Assembly (NCBI GenBank): GCA_016181465.1
Contig: JACOZG010000041.1
Location: 1 to 51,267 of the forward strand
Reading direction: 5' to 3'
DNA length: 51,267 nt
Origin: Candidatus Vogelbacteria bacterium
Lineage (GTDB): Bacteria > Patescibacteriota > Minisyncoccia > Phycocordibacterales > JACOZG01
A model generated the notes under the pieces. That model was not told the origin of the DNA. It worked only from the letters and a program-made list of their open reading frames with translations, and searched no databases. The first letter of the stretch is position 1. Each line of letters begins with the position of its first letter. This document shows positions 18,404-31,848 of this stretch, in pieces. The position numbers and the translations under genes were made by a program.

Positions 18404-18515
18404 GTTAATAACTTAAAAAGCAAAACGAAAAGCGTAAGACAATAGTCCAAAGTTCAAAATATTTTTAATTTTGAGTTGTATGTTTTGCATTTTCAGCTTT
18501 TCACTTTAAATTTCC
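18404..18515 (-). repeat. AT-rich palindromic intercistronic repeat, copy R1 (rpsH/rplF gap)
   Basis: Fills the whole gap. The core ttcaaaatatttttaattttgagttgtatgttttgcatttt (18453..18493) is identical to 28047..28087. The left arm aacttaaaaagcaaaacgaaaagcg is roughly the reverse complement of the right arm. Confidence 0.85.
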
Positions 18516-18908
18516 TCACCAGATGGTAAACAGCGGTTCGCCGCCGACCTTGAGCCGCCGCGCTTCAGCACCGGTCAAAACGCCGCGAGCCGTGGAAATG
18601 ATCAGCTGGCCGTGCCCTTGCCGCACCGGACGGATCGCCCGCCAGCCCAAGTAAACGCGGCGCGATGATTTGGAGAGCCGTTTGACGTTGGTGATTCTCG
18701 GCCGGCCGTCTTGATACGCCAGCTCGACTTCAATAAATTTTCTCGTTTTCTTGCCCTTCTTAACCGCGGCCTTCAATAAGCCGGCGGCCGCGAGCTTCTC
18801 CGCGATCGCCATGGTTAAATTGGAAAAATCAACCGTCACCGTCGCCCGGCCGGCGGCCGAGCCGTTGCGTAAACGAGTGATAAAATCGGCAACCGGATCA
18901 GTTACCAT
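18516..18908 (-). CDS. rpsH: 30S ribosomal protein S8
   Basis: [16 protein letters not shown]... Start moved to the ATG at 18908, which overlaps the rpsN stop by 7 nt. The longer track ORF is an upstream extension. Confidence 0.92.
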
Positions 18909-19087
18909 GAAGATTTTTTGACCCCGGGAATCATCCCCTCGTTGCCGTACTCGCGAAAACAGATCCGACACAGACCAAAATCGCGCATAAAGCTCCGCTT
19001 CCGGCCGCAACGGAAACAGCGCCGCACCAGACGGGTGCTGAACTTCGGGGTTCGTTTGGCTCTCGCGATGACTGATTTTTTGGCCAT
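18902..19087 (-). CDS. rpsN: 30S ribosomal protein S14, Zn-ribbon (type Z) form
   Basis: 61 aa with CFRCG...CRICF. Confidence 0.92.
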
Positions 19088-19123
19088 CTTGAGCCCTATG
19101 CTAGCAGGATTCCCCGCGGGGTG

Positions 19124-19378
19124 TCAAATTGCCGCTTCCAATTTTATTTTTGCCTTTTGGGCAATTTGTTGAATCCACCTCTCGTGGCGATTTAACTGAG
19201 AGGTCACAGCCGCGTATTCAACACGAAGATTATCAATTACTTTGGTTAAACCATCAATCGCCGTGAGTAAACTATTGAGTGTCTCGCGCATAGAATCGAC
19301 TTTCGCATCCAAGAGTTGGAACTCTTGCTTGGTGACCAAAACAGAAGTTAGTTTGGCTATATCTTGGTTAGTGAGCAT
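19124..19378 (-). CDS. Hypothetical coiled-coil protein
   Basis: 84-aa AT-rich ORF inserted between rplE and rpsN. Heptad-like sequence, no family recognised. Confidence 0.5.
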   Translation of the reverse strand: MLTNQDIAKLTSVLVTKQEFQLLDAKVDSMRETLNSLLTAIDGLTKVIDNLRVEYAAVTSQLNRHERWIQQIAQKAKIKLEAAI

Positions 19379-19385
19379 ACCCTAA

Positions 19386-19413
19386 ATAATACCACCAACT
19401 CAAAACGCTGCAA
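19386..19413 (-). promoter_or_regulatory. Candidate sigma70-like promoter for the 84-aa ORF
   Basis: The minus strand reads TTGCAG-16 nt-TATTAT, ending 7 nt before the ATG at 19378. A perfect 12-nt tandem duplication atgtcgcacaaa x2 lies just upstream (19439..19462). Confidence 0.3.
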
Positions 19414-19482
19414 ACCGTAAATAAATGTTAGACATCCGATGTCGCACAAAATGTCGCACAAATAAATACCACCTCGGCTGTC

Positions 19483-19522
19483 AAGAAAAAGGAGACCCGC
19501 TCGCCAAGGCAAAACGGGTCTT
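19483..19522 (-). terminator. Candidate intrinsic terminator inside the rplE-rpsN gap
   Basis: The minus strand reads agacccg-(loop ttttgccttggcgag)-cgggtct followed by cctttttctt. Lies just downstream of the 64-aa ORF. Confidence 0.45.
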
Positions 19523-19578
19523 TGGAAAAATCGCTATGAGTTAGTTGACCGTTCGGCAAGGTTTAACTTTGACACTAC

Positions 19579-19773
19579 TTAAACTCCGCCAATTTTTTCT
19601 TTTGTTCGTTCGTTGAAAATCCTTCTTGCAAGCAACAACACCTGGGCTTTTCCGAGCAGATCGTCGTAGTACGGTTTCTTTTCAGACGCGCGCACGATTG
19701 CTTTCATCTCCGTCACCGGATCGTCGCTACCCAGCGTCTCGACTAGGCGGCGGAATACCCGATTAGGTGTCAA
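19579..19773 (-). CDS. Hypothetical small protein
   Basis: 64-aa ORF with a TTG start in the track. No recognisable motif. Confidence 0.3.
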   Translation of the reverse strand: MTPNRVFRRLVETLGSDDPVTEMKAIVRASEKKPYYDDLLGKAQVLLLARRIFNERTKEKIGGV

Positions 19774-19946
19774 TTTTCGAGACTTAAAAAAAAATCATAA
19801 CATTCTTCTCCTTTTTTAACTTGTTAGAGATCCAAATCCTTCCTATTACTAGCATGGGTACGGACCGGTGACAAGTATCCCCGTATCACAAATAGCGCAC
19901 GATCGTGGCTTATTTATGATATCAAACCGGGTCACAATTTGTGATC

Positions 19947-20498
19947 TTAAAGTTTCCGGAACGGGAAGTCGAGGGCGCGGAAGAGGGCGAGGCCGCGGTC
20001 GCGCGTCCCCGCGGTCGTCACGATGGTTACGGCCAAACCGAAAACATCTTTCAAATCCTCGTCCGCGGTTTCCGGAAAAATGGTGTGCTCGCGAATCCCA
20101 ATATTAAGATTACCGGTGTCGTCCACCATTGATTCCTCAAAGCCGCGGAAGTCCCTCATCCGCGGCACAGCGACATTTAAAAATTTATCCAAGAAACGTT
20201 CTAGCCGCTTGCCGCGCAGAGTAACAAGCAAACCGATCGGCTCATGCAAACGCACCTTGAACGAAGCGATGGCTCGCTTCGCGCCGCGCCAAGCCGGTTT
20301 CTGACCGGTGATTTTCGCCAGCCGGTCGGCGGCGAGCTCCAGTTGTTTTTTGTCGCGGCGCTTGCCGGTACCGGTCGCCACCACGACTTTGACTAACCGC
20401 GGCGCGGCGAAACGATTCTTCAAACCCAATATTTTCAGCAATTGGGGCAGGACCTGCTCGTATTTTTCTTTAATCGGAATCATAGATTGGAACCGCAT
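19947..20498 (-). CDS. rplE: 50S ribosomal protein L5
   Basis: Typical L5 (LKNRFAAPRLVKVVV..., NLNIGIREHTIFPE). Confidence 0.93.
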   Translation of the reverse strand: MRFQSMIPIKEKYEQVLPQLLKILGLKNRFAAPRLVKVVVATGTGKRRDKKQLELAADRLAKITGQKPAWRGAKRAIASFKVRLHEPIGLLVTLRGKRLERFLDKFLNVAVPRMRDFRGFEESMVDDTGNLNIGIREHTIFPETADEDLKDVFGLAVTIVTTAGTRDRGLALFRALDFPFRKL

Positions 20499-20830
20499 TT
20501 ACGGCAAATCCTGATTTTATTTAATCCTTCCCGCCGGGAGCCGACCCGGACCCCGCGCCCGCAACGGGCGCATTTAATCATCACTTTGGCCGCCGGGAGC
20601 GGGTAAGCCACAGCCACGACCTGACCCTTTTCTCCGGCCTTCTTGGGCCGAAGGCGTCGTTTGAACAGATTAAGACCTTCAACTACCACTTTATTCTCCC
20701 GGGGCCCGCCCGATCCGAACGAAGCCCGGCTCGTTCGGGCGGGGAAAACGCGCAGGATTTTGCCCTCGCGGTTGCGATCCTTGCCTGCCAGCACAATCAC
20801 GGTGTCACCTTTTTTCAGTTTCATTTTCAT
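20480..20830 (-). CDS. rplX: 50S ribosomal protein L24 with C-terminal CxxC...CxxC
   Basis: KOW motif KKGDTVIVLAGKDRNREGKI. Start moved to MKMKLKKGD at 20830. The C-terminus carries CARCG...CRKCG. Confidence 0.85.
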   Translation of the reverse strand: MKMKLKKGDTVIVLAGKDRNREGKILRVFPARTSRASFGSGGPRENKVVVEGLNLFKRRLRPKKAGEKGQVVAVAYPLPAAKVMIKCARCGRGVRVGSRREGLNKIRICRKCGSNL

Positions 20831-20934
20831 AAACGTAAAGTGTAAAACTAAAAACGAAAAATAACAGCGCAAAATTTAAAATTTTTAATTTTGAGTTGTA
20901 TATTTTGCATTTTACGCTTTGAGTTTTGCATTTC
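20831..20934 (-). repeat. AT-rich palindromic intercistronic repeat, copy R2 (rplN/rplX gap)
   Basis: atttttaattttgagttgtatattttgcattttacgcttt (20891..20930) differs from the R1/R5 core at about 1-2 nt. Confidence 0.8.
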
Positions 20935-21306
20935 TTAGACAATTTCCGGCGCCATTGAACCAATTTTGGCATAACCCCGCTCGACCAACTCGCGCGGGAT
21001 CGGCCCAAAAATCCGTCCGCCCAGGGGTTCGAGCTTTTCTTTATCCAAGAGCACGACGGCGTTATCGTCAAAACGGAGATAGGACCCGTCGCGGCGGCGG
21101 AACGGCTGGGATTGACGCACAACCACCGCCCGCACGACCTCTTTTTTCTTGATCGCTTTTTTGGGCTCGGCGGTCTGAATTGAAAGCACGACTAGATCGC
21201 CGATCTTGGCGTAGCGGCGGCGCGAGCCGCCGAGCACTTTAAAAATCCGTCCGATCTTGGCGCCGGTGTTATCGACAATCTTAACAATGGAACGCGGCTG
21301 GATCAT
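20935..21306 (-). CDS. rplN: 50S ribosomal protein L14
   Basis: MIQPRSIVKIVDNTGAK is a typical L14 start. Confidence 0.95.
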   Translation of the reverse strand: MIQPRSIVKIVDNTGAKIGRIFKVLGGSRRRYAKIGDLVVLSIQTAEPKKAIKKKEVVRAVVVRQSQPFRRRDGSYLRFDDNAVVLLDKEKLEPLGGRIFGPIPRELVERGYAKIGSMAPEIV

Positions 21307-21316
21307 AATAACGGAG

Positions 21317-21544
21317 TCAGATTACTGCAAAATGCTTTCGCCGCGACATCGGCCGCGTCTCCTTAATCTTAACGCGATCGCCGACCTTATGACCGATCTC
21401 GTCATGCGCCAGATACCGTTTGGAACGGCGGATATATTTGCCGTACTTCGGATGTTTGACCAGTCGTCTGATTTCCACCACCACAGTTTTTGGCAAGCGG
21501 TCGGAGACCACGATGCCGGCCAAAATTTTCGGCTTAGTTTTCAT
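21317..21544 (-). CDS. rpsQ: 30S ribosomal protein S17
   Basis: ILAGIVVSDRLPKTVVVEIRRLVKHPKYGKYIRRSKRYLAHD. Its start overlaps the rplP stop by 4 nt, so no rpmC (L29) lies between them. Confidence 0.93.
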   Translation of the reverse strand: MKTKPKILAGIVVSDRLPKTVVVEIRRLVKHPKYGKYIRRSKRYLAHDEIGHKVGDRVKIKETRPMSRRKHFAVI

Positions 21545-21960
21545 TGTCGTTCAACCACTTTAGTTTTCAAGGGTAATTTCGACCCGGCCTGACGCAAAAC
21601 AGCCGCGGCTGATGCCGCCGCCAAACCGTCAACTTCAAACAGCACCCGGCCGGGCCAGACAATGAATTCGTAGCCGGCCGGATCGCCCTTGCCCTTGCCC
21701 ATGCCGACCTCGGCCGGCTTGGCGGTAAACGGTTTGTCGGGAAAAATCCGAATCCAGAACTTGCCGCCTTTCTGCGTCTCGCGGCTGATCACGCGCCGCG
21801 CCGCCTCGATTTGCTCCGAACGCACCCGGCCGGCGCCCGCGGCCTTCAACCCATGCGAACCAAAAACCACTTTCAAGCCCCGCGACTCGACGCGGGGCCG
21901 GTTGGGATTGCGGCGCATCGTGTGCCATTTTCGAAATTTTACTTTTTTGGGATACAGCAT
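21541..21960 (-). CDS. rplP: 50S ribosomal protein L16
   Basis: MLYPKKVKFRKWH...GKFWIRIFPDKPFTAKPAEVGMGKGKG. Confidence 0.95.
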   Translation of the reverse strand: MLYPKKVKFRKWHTMRRNPNRPRVESRGLKVVFGSHGLKAAGAGRVRSEQIEAARRVISRETQKGGKFWIRIFPDKPFTAKPAEVGMGKGKGDPAGYEFIVWPGRVLFEVDGLAAASAAAVLRQAGSKLPLKTKVVERQ

Positions 21961-21961
21961 T

Positions 21962-22615
21962 TTAGGTGAAAATCTCTCCCCGATAAATCCAAACTTTGAC
22001 GCCGATCACGCCGTAAGACAGGAGCGCGCGTGCCCGAGCAAAATCAATGTCGGCCCGGAGAGTCTGGAGCGGCAGGCGGCCCTTTTTCATCGACTCGGTT
22101 CGGGCAATGTCCGTCCCGCCCAAACGGCCGGCGACCACCACTTTCACGCCTTGAACTTGCTTGTTGGCCATCACTTTTTCAATCGCCTGCTTCAGCACCC
22201 GTTTGAAAGACAGACGTTTCTCCAGTCCTTCGACCACGAGGCCGGCGGCAATCGCGGCATGCGACTCGGGCTGACGGACTTCTTCTATATCCAATTTGAA
22301 TTCTTTCGGCCGGGCGAGCTGGTGCTTAGCGAGGAGCGCCAAAATCTCGTTCCGGAGTTTGGTCGCGCCTTCGCCAGAACGGCCGATGACGAGCCCGGGC
22401 CGGGCGGTTTTAACCGTCACGCGGTAAAAATTGGTACCCCGTTCAATTTCCACCTTGTCCACCGAAAGGCCCCGGAGCCGCTTCTCCAGAAATTCGCGGA
22501 TTAAAATATCACTCCGCAGGTACTCGCGGTAGGCGCCGCGCCGACCAAACCAGCGCGACTGCCAATCGCGGATTAAGCCGAGCCGATGCGCATAGGGATG
22601 AACGGAGTGAGACAT
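21962..22615 (-). CDS. rpsC: 30S ribosomal protein S3
   Basis: HPYAHRLGLIRDWQSRWF, plus KH and C-terminal domains. Confidence 0.95.
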   Translation of the reverse strand: MSHSVHPYAHRLGLIRDWQSRWFGRRGAYREYLRSDILIREFLEKRLRGLSVDKVEIERGTNFYRVTVKTARPGLVIGRSGEGATKLRNEILALLAKHQLARPKEFKLDIEEVRQPESHAAIAAGLVVEGLEKRLSFKRVLKQAIEKVMANKQVQGVKVVVAGRLGGTDIARTESMKKGRLPLQTLRADIDFARARALLSYGVIGVKVWIYRGEIFT

Positions 22616-22735
22616 GGTAGCAACTTAAAATGTAAAATGCAAAACGCAAAACAACAATGCAAAACTGAGAATATTTTTAACTTTGAATTGTATGTTTTTC
22701 ATTTTTCACTTTCAACTTTGCGCTTCCAGTTCGAC
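22616..22735 (-). repeat. AT-rich palindromic intercistronic repeat, copy R3 (rplV/rpsC gap, reaching into the rplV 3' end)
   Basis: aatatttttaactttgaattgtatgtttttcatttttcacttt (22670..22712) plus the left arm aacttaaaatgtaaaatgcaaaacgcaaaacaa. The rplV stop codon lies inside the element. Confidence 0.75.
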
Positions 22736-22950
22736 CGAGAGACGGCTGGCGCGACGACGAAATTATCGACGGGGCCGGCGCCGTAATTAGCGCTGGCCGA
22801 CCGGATGAGTTTGGCAAGCGGCGAAGCCGCTCGCTTGGGTAAAAATTTAAGCCGCTTCAAGGCCTCGCCAACGGTCTGGCCGCGGACCAAATCAGCCAGC
22901 AAACGGACCTTGCGCGGCGATTGACGGTAATTATTTAGTTGGGCTTTCAT
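22699..22950 (-). CDS. rplV: 50S ribosomal protein L22, unusually short (83 aa)
   Basis: Start moved to [24 protein letters not shown] at 22950. The N-terminal two thirds are typical L22. I could not find the C-terminal beta-hairpin region (..PRAxGRAxxIxKRTSHI..) in any frame. Confidence 0.8.
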
Positions 22951-23296
22951 GTTTAATTTCCGCCGCGGCGGCCCGCTCTTTAGCCGCTTGTGCGGACGCG
23001 ATTTCAGCCTCTTTCCGCTTCTGCTCTTCTTCTTTCTGCATCTTGCCGCCATGACGGACGAATTTTCGCGTTGGCGAAAATTCGCCCAAGCGATGACCGA
23101 CCATCTCCTCGCTGACCAGCACTTCAAGGTGCGTCCGGCCGTTGTGCACGGCAAAGGTAAAACCGACCATCTCCGGACTAATTTGGCTCCGGCGCGCCCA
23201 AGTTTTAATCACACCGGCTTGCTCCGGTTTTTTACCGGAAATTTTCTTCAGCAATTTTGGGTCCAGATAAGGACCTTTTTTAAGCGATCGTGTCAT
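22931..23296 (-). CDS. rpsS: 30S ribosomal protein S19 with Lys/Glu/Ala-rich C-terminal extension
   Basis: [12 protein letters not shown]...[29 protein letters not shown], followed by about 30 extra residues ([27 protein letters not shown]). Confidence 0.92.
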
Positions 23297-23446
23297 AAGC
23301 AGCAGGAATAAATCCTAGCAAACTTTGTTTATTTGAGCAACTTAGGTACAGAAAAAGGCAAAGTTAAAAACTTAGAATTGAAAACAACAACTAAGAGTTT
23401 TAAGCTGTATGCTTTAAGTTTTTCGTTTTACGTTTTACGCTTTCAC
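23297..23446 (-). repeat. Divergent AT-rich repeat, copy R4 (gap between PKD-dockerin gene and rpsS)
   Basis: Contains gttttaagctgtatgctttaagtttttcgttttacgttttacgcttt and aaaacaacaac. Related to R1-R3 and R5 but more diverged. Confidence 0.55.
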
Positions 23447-25492
23447 TTACCGCCCGAGGGACTGTTGGAGGGTTTGGAGTAAAGAGCTTAAAGCCGAGAG
23501 CGCGTTGGCCAACTGGCTCTGGGCGCCGGCTTGCCCCGCCAAAGGCTGGGGGCAAGCCGGCAGAGAACGGATGGCGTCCGGCGCGGAGAGAATCTCGCCG
23601 GCGCGGGTCACATCAGCCGCGTTGAAGACGCCATCGCGGTTGATGTCGGTCTTGTAGAGCGGCTGACTGGCGCCAGCGGCTGTGCCGACCCAGGCATTTA
23701 GGAGACCGATGTCTCTAGCCAACGCCCAACCATCCTGATCCACATCCCCGGGCAAGAAGCCGAGGCAGATACTTGTGTTACTCGGTTTGTGGGTGATGCG
23801 AATCCGTTCGCCGGGGAGAATTTGGCGAGAGAAAGAAACAGCATAGTTATTTGCATTGGCCCAACGAACTTGAGAAACGGCTGGAGCCCCTGCCGCGTTT
23901 GAACTAGAAATTGAGAAATAATCAAGGAGAGAACCCGAGGTAGGAAGTAAGCCAGAGAAAGTTAACCCAACAGAACCCCACGGCAATTCACCTCGCACAG
24001 CACTAAGTAATGTAGCTTCAGCCGCATCAATCGCCCCATCTGGCGGATAAGAAGAGATGATGGTGGGGATGGGGGTAGGAATTGAACCTCCGATTTTAAA
24101 TGGTCGATCACTATCATCAACAATACAACTGTTATCTGAACAATTGATAAAAATCACATAATTACCGGAGGGAGTAATTTTATTTCCTGTCCTTGGATCA
24201 ATTAAAGAATCGAGAGGTTTTGCAAACCAATACTCAGTTCCATCATTTGGTATGCCAGAGAAAATTACTCTGCCTAAACGAGTTGGGTGATCAAGAAGCC
24301 AAATATCAACCTTGCCGGCTTGAGTGGGGATATCTGTATGTGGTACCCATTGAATCTTATATTCTTGACCAGTATTTAATGTCTCATCACCGTTCGGCCA
24401 AAGGACTTTTAATTGCGCTAAACCGGTTCCAGTAACCACCACGCTCAAGCTCGTCTTAGCCGGTTGGCCGGCGTTGTCGGTAACGGTGAAAGTCGGGTAA
24501 TAAGTGCCGGCTTGGGAATAGGTGTGAGTGAAGGTGGCGGTTTGCTGGATTTGCTGGACTGTGGGTGAACCGGCCGTTGTGCCGCCTTCATCGCCCCAGA
24601 CCACCGAGTAAGACAGCGGCCCATTCTCGGGATCAGACGCTGTCACGCTCCAAGTGCCGCTCTGCCCGACATTGAGCACCGTCGGCCCGGAGACGCCAGA
24701 GATTGAAGGGGGAAGGTTAGGTACTGAATCAACTGCAATACGGAACGCTTTGTCACTAGTATCAGCAATACCCGCTCCGTGTATATATACCACTATAAAA
24801 ACATCACGCCCTACCCAATTGGACAAGGTACTGGGGATCGTCCATAGATATTCACCGGTATTAGGCATAGTAAATACTAGGGTTACCTCTGGCCCCTCAG
24901 TAGAAGGAGGACTACCCTTCAAACCAATCTGTACATTAGAAGATGCATACTTATCAGAAGTTTTCCATTTAATAGGATAAGTGCGACCAATCTGCCAACT
25001 CTCTCCCCCGTTCGGGGACACGACGGTGATAGCGGGGGTGGAGGGAGAAGACGATGGAGGAAGCACAAGTGACGGAGTGATAGCCGGCGCCGGCAACCGT
25101 TGGGCGGCTAACTGCTGTTGTTGCAAAGCGTTCACCAGAACGAACAGCTGATTCATTATGTTGGGACAATCATTGACACCGCAATCAAGCTCCAACACTT
25201 CCGCCTCCGGTGAAATGACGAAAATGGAAGGAGCGACAGCCGCGGTGCTCGTGCCAAAGTTCGGACAAGGCAGCCCAGTAATCGGGTGGTAGCCGGACCT
25301 CAGGCCGCAAGGGCGCCGCACCGGCTTCGGCGGGCGGCCCCGAAACATTTCTATCAATTGCTCCTGCAACTGTAAAGTTTGAATCTGAAGGGTGCCGACT
25401 GTATTGAGCGGCGTTTGAGCCTTAGTTAAAACTGGCGGCATTAATAAAATCAATGCCAAAACGCCAATCGTCAAAAATCTGTTGATTTTCAT
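23447..25492 (-). CDS. Secreted multi-domain surface protein with PKD domain and C-terminal dockerin-like repeats
   Basis: Start moved to MKINRFLTIGVLALILL (signal peptide) at 25492. PKD domain (ISGVSGPTVLNVGQSGTWSVTASDPENGPLSYSVVWGDE...YYPTFTVTDNAG). Two SPNGGESW/LWPNGDE Ig-like repeats. Two Ca-binding dockerin-type loops (GDVDQDG..., TDINRDGVFNAADV). Confidence 0.85.
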   Translation of the reverse strand: MKINRFLTIGVLALILLMPPVLTKAQTPLNTVGTLQIQTLQLQEQLIEMFRGRPPKPVRRPCGLRSGYHPITGLPCPNFGTSTAAVAPSIFVISPEAEVLELDCGVNDCPNIMNQLFVLVNALQQQQLAAQRLPAPAITPSLVLPPSSSPSTPAITVVSPNGGESWQIGRTYPIKWKTSDKYASSNVQIGLKGSPPSTEGPEVTLVFTMPNTGEYLWTIPSTLSNWVGRDVFIVVYIHGAGIADTSDKAFRIAVDSVPNLPPSISGVSGPTVLNVGQSGTWSVTASDPENGPLSYSVVWGDEGGTTAGSPTVQQIQQTATFTHTYSQAGTYYPTFTVTDNAGQPAKTSLSVVVTGTGLAQLKVLWPNGDETLNTGQEYKIQWVPHTDIPTQAGKVDIWLLDHPTRLGRVIFSGIPNDGTEYWFAKPLDSLIDPRTGNKITPSGNYVIFINCSDNSCIVDDSDRPFKIGGSIPTPIPTIISSYPPDGAIDAAEATLLSAVRGELPWGSVGLTFSGLLPTSGSLLDYFSISSSNAAGAPAVSQVRWANANNYAVSFSRQILPGERIRITHKPSNTSICLGFLPGDVDQDGWALARDIGLLNAWVGTAAGASQPLYKTDINRDGVFNAADVTRAGEILSAPDAIRSLPACPQPLAGQAGAQSQLANALSALSSLLQTLQQSLGR

Positions 25493-25606
25493 AGTATTAT
25501 TCTGGTTTTTAACTGATAATTTTGCGCTTCGCGCTTTATGCTTCACTTATTGTCCCATAAACGAAAAAAAAATCACTTGAGTTATCAACAGCCGCAAGAG
25601 AGAATC

Positions 25607-25870
25607 TTAGCGGTAAATATTCTTACGATGACCAACTTTGAGTAGATGAATTGTTTCTGCCGAAAGAAACTTAAAAATCACTCGATAATCCCGCCCTAAA
25701 CGAAAAGAGTAAAAACTTTTCAACTCACCGGTTAAAGGTTTGGTATGCAAAAGTGACGAGAATGGTTCTTTGGCCAACAAGTCCAAACTACGGCGGAGAC
25801 GAGATTGAAGATTTTTATCGAGCAGTTTAGCCGAGCGGATAAATGACTGACCGAAAATCAGAGAGGACAT
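25607..25870 (-). CDS. RelE/ParE-family type II toxin
   Basis: 87 aa. PLTGELKSFYSFRLGRDYRVIFKF..ETIHLLKVGHRKNIY is the RelE/StbE pattern. Abuts the upstream 67-aa ORF. Confidence 0.75.
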   Translation of the reverse strand: MSSLIFGQSFIRSAKLLDKNLQSRLRRSLDLLAKEPFSSLLHTKPLTGELKSFYSFRLGRDYRVIFKFLSAETIHLLKVGHRKNIYR

Positions 25871-26074
25871 TTAGGATTGGAGTATCCTTAAAAATTCTTT
25901 TGGATGGTAACGATAAATAGTTTTTTCGTTAGCGATTCTCAAGACACTATTTACAAACTCGACTTTGTAGGATCCTTCTGGATCTTTAATCTCCGACAAA
26001 ATTGGGGTAATGAATTCTTCAATTAACTCCCTTTTTATCTCGGTTTTTAATTTGTTGTAAGTAGCGATAGTCAT
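25871..26074 (-). CDS. Putative cognate antitoxin (family not recognised)
   Basis: 67-aa ORF ending immediately before the toxin ATG. Confidence 0.5.
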   Translation of the reverse strand: MTIATYNKLKTEIKRELIEEFITPILSEIKDPEGSYKVEFVNSVLRIANEKTIYRYHPKEFLRILQS

Positions 26075-26199
26075 ATTCTATGTTTTTTTAGTCTTAATGA
26101 TTTAACCAAAAGTCGTTTATAATCACTCCGAGGAATGACGACCAGTTCGCCTTTTTGGGTCAGAGATCTGGGAATAATTAAAATTTTCATAATCGTCAT
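26071..26199 (-). CDS. Possible 42-aa AbrB/SpoVT-like small ORF (below ORF-track cutoff)
   Basis: My translation is MTIMKILIIPRSLTQKGELVVIPRSDYKRLLVKSLRLKKHRI. Its TGA overlaps the ATG of the 67-aa ORF (ATGA). Confidence 0.3.
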   Translation of the reverse strand: MTIMKILIIPRSLTQKGELVVIPRSDYKRLLVKSLRLKKHRI

Positions 26200-26229
26200 C
26201 CTAACACAAAGCGACACCAACATCAAGTA

Positions 26230-27078
26230 TTACTTTTTCTTCCGGCGCGAGACAATAAAAACATTGGAGTACTTCTTGGCCCGGCGGGTTTTGCGACCGC
26301 CCGTGACCTTACCCCAAAGAGTTTTGGGACGGCGCGTGCCCCGGCCTTGCCGGCCCTCGCCGCCGCCGTACGGGTGATCCACCGGATTCATCGCCGTGCC
26401 GCGCACCGTCGGCCGGATGCCGAGCCAGCGCGAGCGCCCGGCCTTGCCGATGCTAACTAATTTCTGCTCCTCGTTGGAGACCGCGCCGATGGAAGCCCAA
26501 GCATTTTCATTGATCCGGCGGAGCTCACTCGAGGGCAAACGGACAGTGGTGTAACCGGCATCATTTGATAAAACTTGGGCAAAACTGCCGGCCGAGCGCA
26601 CGAGTCGAGCCCCGCCCTGCGGCGCGATTTCAATATTATAGACAAAAGCGCCGACCGGAATTTTCTTAAGCGGCAAACGGTTGCCCGGCGAGAGCGGCGC
26701 GGTTTGGGCCGTTATGACTTCGTCGCCGACCTTCAGGGCTTTCGGCAAAAGTAAGTACCGGCGCTCGCCGTCCTGGTAGAGCGCCAAACCGATAAAGCCG
26801 GTGCGATTGGGATCATACTCAATTGTTTCCACGCGCGCCGGCACGCCGACCTTGTCGTACTTAAAATCCACTAAGCGGTAGAGTCGTTTATGACCGCCGC
26901 CCTTATGCCGAACGCTGATCCGACCGGCGCTCGATCGGCCGACCGCGCGCTTGCCCCCGCGGGTCAAAGACTTCAGCGGTTCGCTCGCGGTCAGCCGCTC
27001 GCGGTAATTTATGCCGATGGTCTGGCGACGACTGGGCGTGAATGGCTGATATGTTTTCATCTGTTTATTTCCAGTCAA
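26230..27078 (-). CDS. rplB: 50S ribosomal protein L2
   Basis: GRSSAGRISVRHKGGGHKRLYR, and GTAMNPVDHPYGGGEGR near the C-terminus. Confidence 0.96.
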   Translation of the reverse strand: MTGNKQMKTYQPFTPSRRQTIGINYRERLTASEPLKSLTRGGKRAVGRSSAGRISVRHKGGGHKRLYRLVDFKYDKVGVPARVETIEYDPNRTGFIGLALYQDGERRYLLLPKALKVGDEVITAQTAPLSPGNRLPLKKIPVGAFVYNIEIAPQGGARLVRSAGSFAQVLSNDAGYTTVRLPSSELRRINENAWASIGAVSNEEQKLVSIGKAGRSRWLGIRPTVRGTAMNPVDHPYGGGEGRQGRGTRRPKTLWGKVTGGRKTRRAKKYSNVFIVSRRKKK

Positions 27079-27352
27079 TTTTCTCGCCCGGACTCAAGTA
27101 GACCAGAACTTTTTTGTAACCGGGTTTCTTGGCCGGCCGGCCGCGGTAGATCAATCGTTTAGACGGCACATTGATGACCCGCACCTTGATCGGCTTGACC
27201 TGATAATTTTTGCCGATCGCTTTCTTAATCTCGGTCTTGTTGGCCGCCGCCGGCGCCGTAAAAGTAAAAACGGGGCGCGGCGCATTCTGGCGCGCCTGCG
27301 TCTTTTCGGTTAGATGCGGCCGCCAGCCAAGATTATTTTTATTTTCGGCCAT
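27065..27352 (-). CDS. rplW: 50S ribosomal protein L23
   Basis: Start moved to MAENKNN at 27352. FTFTAPAAANKTEIKKAIGKNYQVKPIKVRVIN is typical of L23. Confidence 0.9.
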   Translation of the reverse strand: MAENKNNLGWRPHLTEKTQARQNAPRPVFTFTAPAAANKTEIKKAIGKNYQVKPIKVRVINVPSKRLIYRGRPAKKPGYKKVLVYLSPGEKIDWK

Positions 27353-27998
27353 AAAACGTTTCCAGACTGCGGACTGGATCAACGACCACCAGATAGCGGT
27401 AGCGCAAGAGCCCCAGCGGATTAAGATTTCTCGCTTCTTCCACGGCGACCGCCGGCAGATTGCGAAAACTGCGCTGTAAATTCTGATTTCTCTCCGGTAT
27501 CGCGATCAGCGCGCGTTTGCCCTGACGATAATTTAACTGATTAAAACCCTTGACGCGCGACAGAGCATTGATTACCGCTTGAGCTTTTTGGGTCTTGACC
27601 GCTTCTAATTGCAAATCTTTCAAAAACAAGATGCCGCCGGCGCGCAGTTTGGCCGACAAAACAACGGCGAGCGCTTGGCGCTTCATCTTCTTGTTGATCT
27701 TCTGGCGATAGAGACGTTCGGCGCGCGGCCCGTGGGTGACGCCGCCGCCCCGCCAGAGGGGCGAACGAATGGAACCGTGCCGTGCCCGGCCGGTCCCTTT
27801 CTGCCGCCACGGTTTCTTGCCGCCGCCTCTGACCTCGCCGCGATCCTTGGTTTGGGCGCGGCCGGAACGGGCATTAGCCTGCAGGCCGATCACCACCTGA
27901 TGCACCAGATCGCCGTTCCACGGCCGGTTAAAAAAAGACTCCGACAGATCAATCGTGCCTTCAGGTTTACCGTCTTGATTGTAAATTTTGGCTTCCAT
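27339..27998 (-). CDS. rplD: 50S ribosomal protein L4
   Basis: RGEVRGGGKKPWRQKGTGRARHGSIRSPLWRGGGVTHGP. Confidence 0.95.
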   Translation of the reverse strand: MEAKIYNQDGKPEGTIDLSESFFNRPWNGDLVHQVVIGLQANARSGRAQTKDRGEVRGGGKKPWRQKGTGRARHGSIRSPLWRGGGVTHGPRAERLYRQKINKKMKRQALAVVLSAKLRAGGILFLKDLQLEAVKTQKAQAVINALSRVKGFNQLNYRQGKRALIAIPERNQNLQRSFRNLPAVAVEEARNLNPLGLLRYRYLVVVDPVRSLETFYGRK

Positions 27999-28092
27999 AA
28001 TTAAACTTAAAATGCAAAGCGAAAAGTGTAAAACAACAGTTTAAAATTCAAAATATTTTTAATTTTGAGTTGTATGTTTTGCATTTTACGCT
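27999..28092 (-). repeat. AT-rich palindromic intercistronic repeat, copy R5 (rplC/rplD gap)
   Basis: Fills the whole gap. 28047..28087 is identical to 18453..18493. The left arm aacttaaaatgcaaagcgaaaagtgtaaaacaacagtttaaaatt is an imperfect reverse complement of the right arm aattttgagttgtatgttttgcattttacgcttt. Confidence 0.85.
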
Positions 28093-28512
28093 TTAAACTT
28101 TTAGCTTCTTAATTTCCAGCCTGGTGCCCCGCCGGCCGGGCACGGCGCCGCTAATCAAAAATTGACCGGCTTCCCTATTCACAGCCACCACTTTAAGATG
28201 ACGAACGGTCGCCCGCCGGCCGCCCATCCGGCCAGCCATCCGCATCCCCTTGGGCACGCGAGTGCGCAAGCCCCCGCCGATGGAACCGGGTTCGCGCTCC
28301 GAGTGTTTCTGCCCGTGGGTCCGCGGCCCGCCGTGGAAACCGTGCCGTTTGACCACGCCCTGGAAGCCCTTGCCCTTCGTCAAACCGCTGACAGAGACAA
28401 GGTCGCCGACGGCTAAATCCCCGGCCTCGCCGGACACCACCGTGACCGGATGAACGACGCCGCTGTCGTCAAATATCTGAGTCATTGACTCTTTTTTAGC
28501 CACGACTTTCAT
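28093..28512 (-). CDS. rplC: 50S ribosomal protein L3, unusually short (139 aa)
   Basis: N-terminus [21 protein letters not shown] and C-terminal half [34 protein letters not shown]...MAGRMGG are typical L3. About 60-70 aa are missing between them compared with the ~210-aa L3 I know. Confidence 0.85.
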
Positions 28513-31596: not shown

Positions 31597-31620
31597 AAAT
31601 ATTTTTTAATTTTTATTGTA

Positions 31621-31848
31621 TCACCCTTTACCTTCAGCAGCAAGCTCGCGTATCCGTCTGTACTTTTTGTTTCGATATGCGAACTGGTATTTCGTAGTAT
31701 CGTCGATAATCCATTTTTGTTCTTTTTTGGTTTTATATTCTGATTTATCTACATAACAATGACCCATTATTACCATTTTATTTTTCTTAGCCTCAAAGTG
31801 AAATTCCGCTAACCGATTGTTTATTATGGCAAAAGACCAATAAAACAT
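31621..31848 (-). CDS. Hypothetical 75-aa Lys-rich protein
   Basis: AT-rich ORF directly upstream of the DUF2283 gene. No family recognised. Confidence 0.4.
   Translation of the reverse strand: MFYWSFAIINNRLAEFHFEAKKNKMVIMGHCYVDKSEYKTKKEQKWIIDDTTKYQFAYRNKKYRRIRELAAEGKG

Follow-up and report, generated by a model that had tools for sequence, protein, structure and literature searches.

The DNA analyzed here, hereafter called the window, is a stretch of 51,267 nucleotides (contig JACOZG010000041.1) from a metagenome-assembled genome (MAG) of Candidatus Vogelbacteria bacterium, a member of the candidate phyla radiation (CPR; Patescibacteria) whose assembly comprises 644 kb in 48 contigs with a GC content of 51%. 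A ribosomal-protein operon lies on its minus strand, and five AT-rich imperfect palindromes of ~105 nt (GC 21-29%, about 24%) occupy stop-to-start gaps of this operon. These elements, e1 to e5, are listed below together with a possible solo arm. The scores are those of a family hidden Markov model (HMM), which was seeded with e1, e2, e3 and e5 alone (nhmmer) and then iterated, and of a covariance model (CM), which was also built.

18404..18516, minus strand: e1, from the rpsH stop to the rplF ATG (18403); nhmmer E = 1.7e-28, CM 90.2 bits
20831..20935, minus strand: e2, from the rplN stop to the rplX ATG; nhmmer E = 9.6e-25, CM 99.4 bits
22616..22735, minus strand: e3, between rplV and rpsC; nhmmer E = 7.8e-29
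23340..23446, minus strand: e4, a diverged copy in the gap between the PKD gene and rpsS; CM 54.8 bits on the plus strand (E = 1.5e-9) and 50.5 bits on the minus strand
27999..28108, minus strand: e5, between rplC and rplD; nhmmer E = 1.5e-26, CM 101 bits
25496..25550, minus strand: possible solo left arm made of heptad-like units (AAGTGAAGCATAAAGCGCGAAGCGCAAAA), just upstream of the PKD gene start; nhmmer E = 0.4-1.2, not significant

A preliminary description of the window, made from its letters alone, had named five related copies, and all five are real. Elements e1, e2, e3 and e5 score E = 1e-24 to 1e-28 with the HMM built from those four, and e4 was recovered with E = 4e-6 at the first pass and 8.5e-14 after one iteration. 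A repeat search of the window returned a five-copy family at 18458-18517, 20878-20937, 22670-22729, 23387-23446 and 28052-28111, and the operon copies are 75-86% alike in pairwise comparison. The 41-nt block that had been reported as identical in e1 (18453-18493) and e5 (28047-28087) was confirmed, with no such match in 100 shuffles. By contrast, the half copy that had been suggested at 25496..25550 is without statistical support, and a partial match at 31597-31621 from the repeat search was rejected because nhmmer did not recover it. The family is not generic AT-rich spacer, since its HMM matches only 14 of the 370 AT-rich islands (at least 80 nt long with GC of 30% or less) in the genome.

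The elements are fitted tightly between genes. Each copy starts 0-2 nt past the upstream stop codon, or else inside the last upstream codons, in which case it supplies the stop, and ends 0-11 nt ahead of the next ATG. Both e3 and e5 reach into the upstream open-reading frames (ORFs) and provide their last codons and stop codons. The diverged e4 abuts the stop codon of the PKD surface-protein gene, is ambiguous in orientation and is separated from rpsS by 43 nt of unique spacer. The end motif ttttaagtt, described earlier as common to all copies, closes only e1, e3 and e5, at 5-6 nt before the ATG; it is missing from e2, which ends with cactttacgttt directly at the ATG. The copies had also been described as imperfect palindromes centred on aaaatatttt, and the palindrome itself holds throughout, with 91.6% of the cells of the consensus stem paired, whereas e2 lacks 2 nt of the centre.

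Aligned copies show an invariant AAA in every seven columns of the left arm and an invariant TTT in every seven columns of the right arm, and the other positions vary. With a lag-7 autocorrelation of 0.44, the two arms mirror each other as arrays of a 7-nt unit (roughly NAAARYG). Nine of the 38 pairs in the consensus stem show compensatory changes. The stem's pairing (91.6%) exceeds that of column shuffles (88.7%; none of 500 reached the observed value) and falls to 61% or less when the partners are slid by one column, and its covariation score was reached by three of 500 shuffles. No element was called as an intrinsic terminator in a terminator scan; the stems are AU-rich and lie inside essential operons, and are not short, GC-rich and followed by a U-run. 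At Rfam gathering thresholds, no known RNA family was found in the window, and only rRNA and tRNA context was found elsewhere.

The family extends well beyond the operon. With the HMM from the four operon copies alone and its iteration, at least 11 full copies, plus partial ones, were recognized in the genome. Below, G000 denotes the window's own genome, C11, C18, C23, C36, C37 and C44 are its contigs, and L numbers are loci (L001 is its own C36). Other G numbers are relatives; 61 genomes of the order were scanned, among them five congeners (G001, G003, G005, G006 and the nearest, G004), and G015 belongs to another genus. All non-rRNA copies in G000 lie between co-directional genes and fill the stop-to-start gap. 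The HMM matches outside the window are as follows.

C36 639-744 and C36 1186-1291: two copies inside the 23S rRNA gene (E = 2.6e-11 and 2.4e-7 for the pair)
C18 19847-19904 and C18 20253-20325: two half-matches
C44 21495-21602 and C44 22865-22970: two copies in a type IV pilus operon (pilT-pilC-pilin)
C11 9602-9689 and C11 8108-8206: two copies in a second pilC/pseudopilin cluster
C23 19241-19346 and C36 6350-6454: two copies, each preceding a gene for a secreted protein
C44 47657-47714: a partial copy

Two of these copies reside in rRNA. The 23S gene is only partly assembled, its 5' 40% (model positions up to 1157) standing at the start of C36; a search with RF02541 missed this partial gene, and an exact search for rRNA motifs gave no further rRNA contig in the genome. 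In the Rfam large-subunit (LSU) alignment, C36 1186-1291 is a 113-nt insert that replaces the 7-nt loop at model positions ~163-170 (helix 9), and C36 639-744 lies in the hairpin at model position 583 (helix 25). A family match in G011 is found in the hairpin loop at model positions ~1205-1227 (helix 45). The rRNA members occur in both orientations. Helices 9, 25 and 45 are the canonical sites of 23S intervening sequences (IVSs), in which an extended stem-loop replaces the tetraloop and is excised by RNase III without religation (PMC4990558). Many short inserts lacking an ORF are present at IVS-type sites in CPR rRNA genes, and the survey that reported them guessed that they were IVSs (PMC11270868). 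The C36 and G011 copies likewise replace the loops of these helices, and the complementary ends of the family give an extended stem-loop; the five window copies themselves lie in mRNA, not in rRNA. Folding is strongest in the two C36 rRNA copies (-52 kcal/mol, z = -5.9 for 639-744 and -7.0 for 1186-1291) and good in the pilus copies, the C23 copy and C36 6350-6454 (z = -3.5 to -5.0), except in C44a (z = -1.0). A gene for RNase III is present at C37 9065-9715 (254 bits). As side observations, position 1 of C36 is a contig break at 23S model position 1157, just before helix 45, where a further repeat copy may have broken the assembly, and the 16S rRNA gene of the relative G047 (L078, C1 1674-1781) contains a hairpin whose arms show GAATCAAGA-type periodicity, with a homing-endonuclease-like ORF nearby.

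The two half-matches on C18 are the left arm (19847-19904) and right arm (20253-20325) of a single split copy. They enclose an ORF of 133 aa for a four-helix-bundle (4HB) protein of TIGR02436 (E = 8e-26), the S23p/23S_rRNA_IVP family, which takes its name from 23S rRNA IVSs and is optionally encoded by them; the nearest solved structure is 2RLD. This copy lies between protein genes, not in rRNA. The C18 ORF begins with VQNIQLK, the residual ORFs of e1, e2 and e5 with MQNIQLK and that of e3 with MKNIQFK; because of this shared ORF start, the operon elements look like internal-deletion derivatives of the 4HB cassette. In G000 (C18), G011 and G047 (locus L045), the shorter copies are accompanied by a full form that combines their arms with a PF05635/TIGR02436 gene. 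In G011, the helix-45 insert resembles both the arms of that genome's own 4HB cassette and the copy in its rpsC/rplP gap.

4HB genes were found in 26 of the 61 relatives, and nearly all of them are bracketed by inverted arrays of 7-8-nt units, the word differing by locus. The arms of these genes were compared by local alignment; duplex folding of their flanks was discarded because its background was too high. In a wider scan of species-representative genomes with an alignment of the own-type 4HB subfamily, 80 own-type loci carry the same A-heptad arms (..AAAATGCAAAAC..), and they come from Patescibacteria, Omnitrophota, Planctomycetota, Zixibacteria, Nitrospiraceae and others. Of 65 cassettes, 59 lie in sense between co-directional genes, with a gap length about equal to that of the arms. 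Regarding orientation, the miniature copies are mostly antisense to the host genes in G047 and sense in G000. A BLAST hint of a 4HB cassette in 23S rRNA (L107) was dropped, as the similarity ran from arm to arm and Rfam found no rRNA there.

The distribution of the family among the relatives is patchy. CM matches exist in 18 of the 61 genomes, including two of the five congeners, with about 18 copies in some genomes. By comparison of the operons, e1 is shared only with the nearest congener, G004 (L058 11944-12052, 95 bits), and its site is empty in G001, G003 and G006. The e2 site is empty in G001, G003, G005 and G006, in which 2 to 5 nt separate the TAA from the ATG, and is filled by an unrelated palindrome in G004. 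At the e3 site, all five congeners lack the element; the e5 site lacks it in G001, G006, G014 and G018, and in G004 holds only a heptad run. As judged from these sequences, e2 and e3 were gained after the split from the nearest congener, and e5 was probably gained likewise. The comparison of orthologous operons proposed in the preliminary description has thus revealed both filled and empty sites, and its suggestion of a miniature mobile element aimed at intergenic sites is supported by the dispersal of the copies, their patchiness in relatives and the empty e2, e3 and e5 sites of congeners. Copies in the relatives are also found at rplW/rplB, rpsC/rplP, rplF/rplR, rpsH/rplF, groES/EL, gatC/A, secD/F and ftsE/X, and one is in a 16S gene; in G047, 15 of the 17 copies lie between co-directional genes, filling the gap.

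Two side observations concern these junctions. AAAAGCT-type heptad runs close ribosomal-protein genes shortly before the next ATG in congeners without the full element (L058 1660-1695, and the rplV/rpsC junctions of L059, L060 and L061), and may be solo arms or remnants. A second, unrelated family of ~80-125-nt palindromes, with ends resembling ATCCCGTTAGAAAT...ATTTCTAACGGGAT and flanking ATGA-type repeats, occurs in G004 at the rplW/rplB, rplP/rpsQ and rplN/rplX junctions (L058 2620-2747, 9320-9445 and 10039-10151), and one copy exists in the genome studied here, upstream of the 23S gene (L001, C36 ~1484-1560).

The insertions have altered flanking genes. Element e3 replaces ~32 rplV codons found in all five congeners, including the ..RFRAGARGRA..KRTSRVTVVL end, and the protein thereby lacks the conserved C-terminal beta-hairpin as well as the last strand; in the congeners, ..KRFRAGARGRA..KRTSRVTVVL abuts rpsC. 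The shortened rplV ORF (22699-22950, 83 aa) matches only positions 1-54 of 103 in TIGR01044, and no second rplV is present in the assembly. Element e5 supplies the last codons of rplC (L3; ..KKLKV) and its stop, and e5 and its G015 counterpart add 3-6 codons to L3. Apart from this, rplC (window 28093-28512) is only 139 aa long and, besides a short N-terminus, aligns with the L3 profile (202 positions) only over about 99-202; it has the same length in G004 and looks like a lineage trait, not an effect of the element.

At some loci the residual ORF runs into the next gene, and there it is predicted to encode a signal peptide (MQSNNLKLKILNFALLFFVFSFTLYVSLVEA.. in C23, a similar one in C36, and orthologues in G029 and G027). 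Such read-through loci are C23 18718-19320, C36 5527-6429, L011, L012 and C11 9215-9703, in which a K/N-rich N-region derives from the A-rich arm, and a hydrophobic core rich in F, L and V from the T-rich arm; the products are signal-peptide-like and, in C11, prepilin-leader-like. As for sequence constraint, G000 and G004 differ at 23% of the 4-fold sites in the ribosomal operon and at 32-34% of those in pilC and pilT. Element e1 differs by 15% between the two genomes, which is not clearly different from neutral, whereas the pilT/pilC copy differs at only three of 105 nt and is >10 times more conserved than synonymous sites. Either this copy is under strong constraint, or one and the same master copy has inserted again at this site. 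In the ribosomal operon, most copies have the look of near-neutral passengers in decay, while some copies elsewhere are put to use, one being strongly conserved and several providing signal peptides.

On this evidence, the palindromes are probably miniature, ORF-less forms within a family of hairpin cassettes with heptamer arms, and they probably behave as selfish, proliferating insertions. The full form consists of a left arm, a TIGR02436/PF05635 4HB gene in the hairpin loop and a right arm; the miniature form retains both arms and the first codons of the 4HB gene (MQNIQLK...); and the same family fills the loops of 23S rRNA helices 9, 25 and 45, where such inserts are known as IVSs. Placement is precisely at cistron junctions, without target duplication. 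Given their position, the elements must be co-transcribed with the operon, and the transcript could fold into an AU-rich stem of ~40-48 bp. If RNase III cuts this stem as it does in rRNA IVSs, the polycistronic mRNA would be severed at junctions that were translationally coupled before insertion; the flanking cistrons would then be translated from separate fragments, and mRNA would tolerate the cut in the way that 23S rRNA does. The preliminary description had listed RNase III-type processing hairpins among the candidate roles, and this part of its proposal gains only indirect backing, by analogy, from the residence in helices 9, 25 and 45 and from the encoded RNase III.

Several observations weigh against this cassette interpretation. 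The ribosomal-operon copies fold weakly (-16 to -22 kcal/mol, z = -0.6 to -3.0; for example, -18.3 kcal/mol and z = -1.5 for e1, and -21.6 kcal/mol and z = -3.0 for e5). On the sense strand, G.U mismatches are as common as A.C mismatches (40:40, 30:38 and 40:28), so selection on an RNA stem leaves no strand-specific trace. None of the about 100 4HB cassettes checked lies in rRNA, and G053, with ~19 copies, lacks a 4HB gene. In G015, an element occupies the rplC/rplD gap at the identical point, which fits either an old insertion with losses or a site-specific re-insertion. No transposase, target duplication or other mobility mechanism was identified, and we infer cleavage by RNase III, in the operon mRNA and even in the organism's own rRNA, by analogy only.

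The elements could instead be regulatory hairpins selected by the host, which would set the stability, processing or translational (un)coupling of cistrons in the manner of the stem-loops of repetitive extragenic palindromic (REP) units and bacterial interspersed mosaic elements (BIMEs) or of other hairpins between cistrons, and would not be selfish. The stop and start codons at the stem base, the recurrence of the same junctions across genera (rpsH/rplF in G000, G004 and G047; rplC/rplD in G000 and G015) and the exceptional conservation of the pilT/pilC copy relative to synonymous sites all suit such a role. However, we regard it as unlikely: the nearest congeners do without e2, e3 and e5 and keep coupled junctions of 2-12 nt, the operon stems are decayed with no excess of G.U over A.C, an unrelated palindrome takes the e2 site in G004, and e3 destroyed the conserved end of rplV. 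It also seems quite unlikely that the element acts at the DNA level, with the RNA hairpin as a by-product, whether the heptamer arrays are bound by the 4HB protein or whether a single strand or cruciform serves as a substrate for recombination or for a Y1 transposase of the REP-associated tyrosine transposase (RAYT) type. Mismatches that are symmetric on both strands, an orientation to transcription that is not conserved between genomes, an arm word that tracks the 4HB subfamily across phyla and a RAYT-like gene 1.1 kb from one copy speak for DNA as the acting form. Nonetheless, almost all copies lie in transcription units and in the loops of rRNA helices, which suggests that they are tolerated as RNA, and the RAYT match is weak, with 50 bits where the cut-off is 80.

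The remaining alternatives concern what the elements might encode, or whether they exist as assembled. The internal, near-leaderless promoters that were proposed earlier would consist of a -35/-10 pair of sigma-70 type shortly before the next ATG, and e1, e3 and e5 indeed read (C/T)TTAC(A/G)-N17-TAAGTT, ending 5-6 nt before the ATG; a promoter scan also found other promoter-like matches in e3 and e5, with 15 across the region where shuffles gave 8.5 +/- 2.8. Yet TTTACA-N17-TAAGTT itself, with 3/6 in the -10 hexamer, does not reach the threshold of the scan, the motif occurs in a subfamily alone and is absent from e2 and from the pilus and rRNA copies, and the T-rich 7-nt repeats yield such matches by composition. 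Since the hexamers are not conserved and the orientation varies across the family, with both orientations in rRNA and a mostly antisense one in G047, promoters are very improbable. A small hydrophobic peptide encoded by the 20-25-codon sense ORF (MQNIQLKIKNILNF...) is more improbable still: the ORF is open in e1, e2, e3, e5 and the e1 of G004, and the same frame is read as a signal peptide where it runs into a downstream gene, but neither the pilus copies nor the rRNA copies contain it, a frame this long is expected to be open about one time in three by chance in this composition (a rough estimate), and its start is explained as a remnant of the 4HB gene start. An assembly artefact, in the form of collapsed or chimeric repeats, might be suspected in a MAG of 48 contigs in which C36 ends inside 23S before helix 45 and a truncated rplV sits oddly beside e3. 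We give it hardly any credence, however, because independent assemblies hold orthologous copies at the same junctions, namely G004 (e1 and pilT/pilC), G005 (pilC) and G015 (rplC/rplD), and because the copies differ from one another by 14-25%.

The remark in the preliminary description that it knew of no described counterpart goes too far, because 23S rRNA IVSs and RNase III-processed miniature inverted-repeat transposable elements (MITEs) are counterparts. Among the latter, the Correia elements of Neisseria and the enterobacterial repetitive intergenic consensus or intergenic repeat unit (ERIC/IRU) elements of Enterobacteria and Yersinia are reported by De Gregorio et al. to be MITE-like palindromes that are co-transcribed with genes and are cleaved by RNase III or alter mRNA stability. 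They share with the present family a length of ~100-150 nt, imperfect palindromes, dispersal near genes, hairpin transcripts and possible promoter-like hexamers. Correia elements, however, have defined terminal inverted repeats and a TA target duplication and are not known to reside in rRNA, whereas our elements have heptamer arms, an exact stop-to-start placement and, in the full-length relative, a 4HB gene instead of a transposase. Like MITEs in general, they are dispersed and differ in presence between related genomes, and their arms are inverted, but no flanking target-site duplication is visible when filled and empty sites are compared at e1, e2 and e5, and the longer relative encodes a 4HB protein and no known transposase. 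The Rickettsia palindromic elements (RPEs), which Ogata et al. in 2000 reportedly found inserted in frame inside genes, are likewise palindromic repeats that occur in a reduced genome and can be translated (in our case into C-terminal residues of L3 and L22 and into signal peptides); the present elements differ in residing at gene boundaries and in rRNA loops. Cyanobacterial short tandemly repeated repetitive (STRR) sequences are tandem repeats of heptamers, and here 7-nt units are arranged as mirror-image pairs of arrays.

REP/BIME sequences and the REPIN-RAYT system also provide intergenic palindromes inside operons, and a RAYT-like gene is present in our genome. However, REP units are ~20-40 nt long, GC-rich and arranged as singlets or, often, inverted doublets with a cognate RAYT gene (PMC3116915), while our elements are single long hairpins of ~105 nt with 21-29% GC and 7-nt periodic arms; the RAYT-like ORF remains below the cut-off, and no link to it was shown. 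A close likeness is to the 23S IVSs of Salmonella, Leptospira, Coxiella burnetii and Alphaproteobacteria (PMC4990558): loop replacement, a stem-loop, sporadic distribution, an optional TIGR02436/PF05635 ORF and the presence of RNase III are common to both. The short, ORF-less inserts at IVS sites of CPR rRNA genes (PMC11270868) belong to the same comparison. This situation is different from that of known 23S IVSs in that most copies lie at cistron junctions of protein operons, the arms are inverted 7-nt arrays, and a single genome contains forms with and without the ORF, much as full-length and non-autonomous elements occur together.

How IVSs arise and move has been an open question since 1990, and no function is known for their S23p/IVP protein (PMC4990558). 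From the present data, these rRNA inserts, puzzling for so long, appear to represent just one of the habitats of a wider element, which inserts exactly between operon genes. A bolder and rather doubtful extension is that IVS-type cassettes form one phylum-spanning, self-propagating class, in which the PF05635 4HB protein (an Avd-like pentamer) would, as a dedicated partner, recognize its cognate 7-nt arrays and help the element to insert or persist in highly transcribed RNAs or their genes, at the tips of hairpins and at stop/start junctions, the operon palindromes being its non-autonomous offspring. If this were true, the classical 23S rRNA IVS would merely be the habitat that was noticed first. 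In the literature, we found accounts of IVS biology and of CPR rRNA inserts and nothing linking them to operon palindromes, heptamer arms or 4HB genes outside rRNA, so the link among operon, rRNA and 4HB forms seems undescribed. One genome holds the three forms side by side, namely, IVS copies in helices 9 and 25, gene-less copies at junctions and a copy with the 4HB gene, and the congeners date several of the insertions. Three propositions become testable: that IVSs belong to a dispersed family, that this family colonizes stop/start junctions of essential operons, and that the 4HB protein is tied to heptamer arrays. A minimal genome has been reshaped in the process, with L3 and L22 extended or truncated, signal peptides donated and coupled junctions broken.

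Two minor features of the operon were also recognized. The rplP and rpsQ genes overlap (window 21541-21544), leaving no space for rpmC (L29), whereas G006 and G018 have a gap of ~210-240 nt there; L29 seems absent from the rplP/rpsQ position in the genus. The PKD-domain surface-protein gene (window 23447-25546), which is absent in G014, sits between rplB and rpsS in most genomes of this bacterial family (L058-L063).

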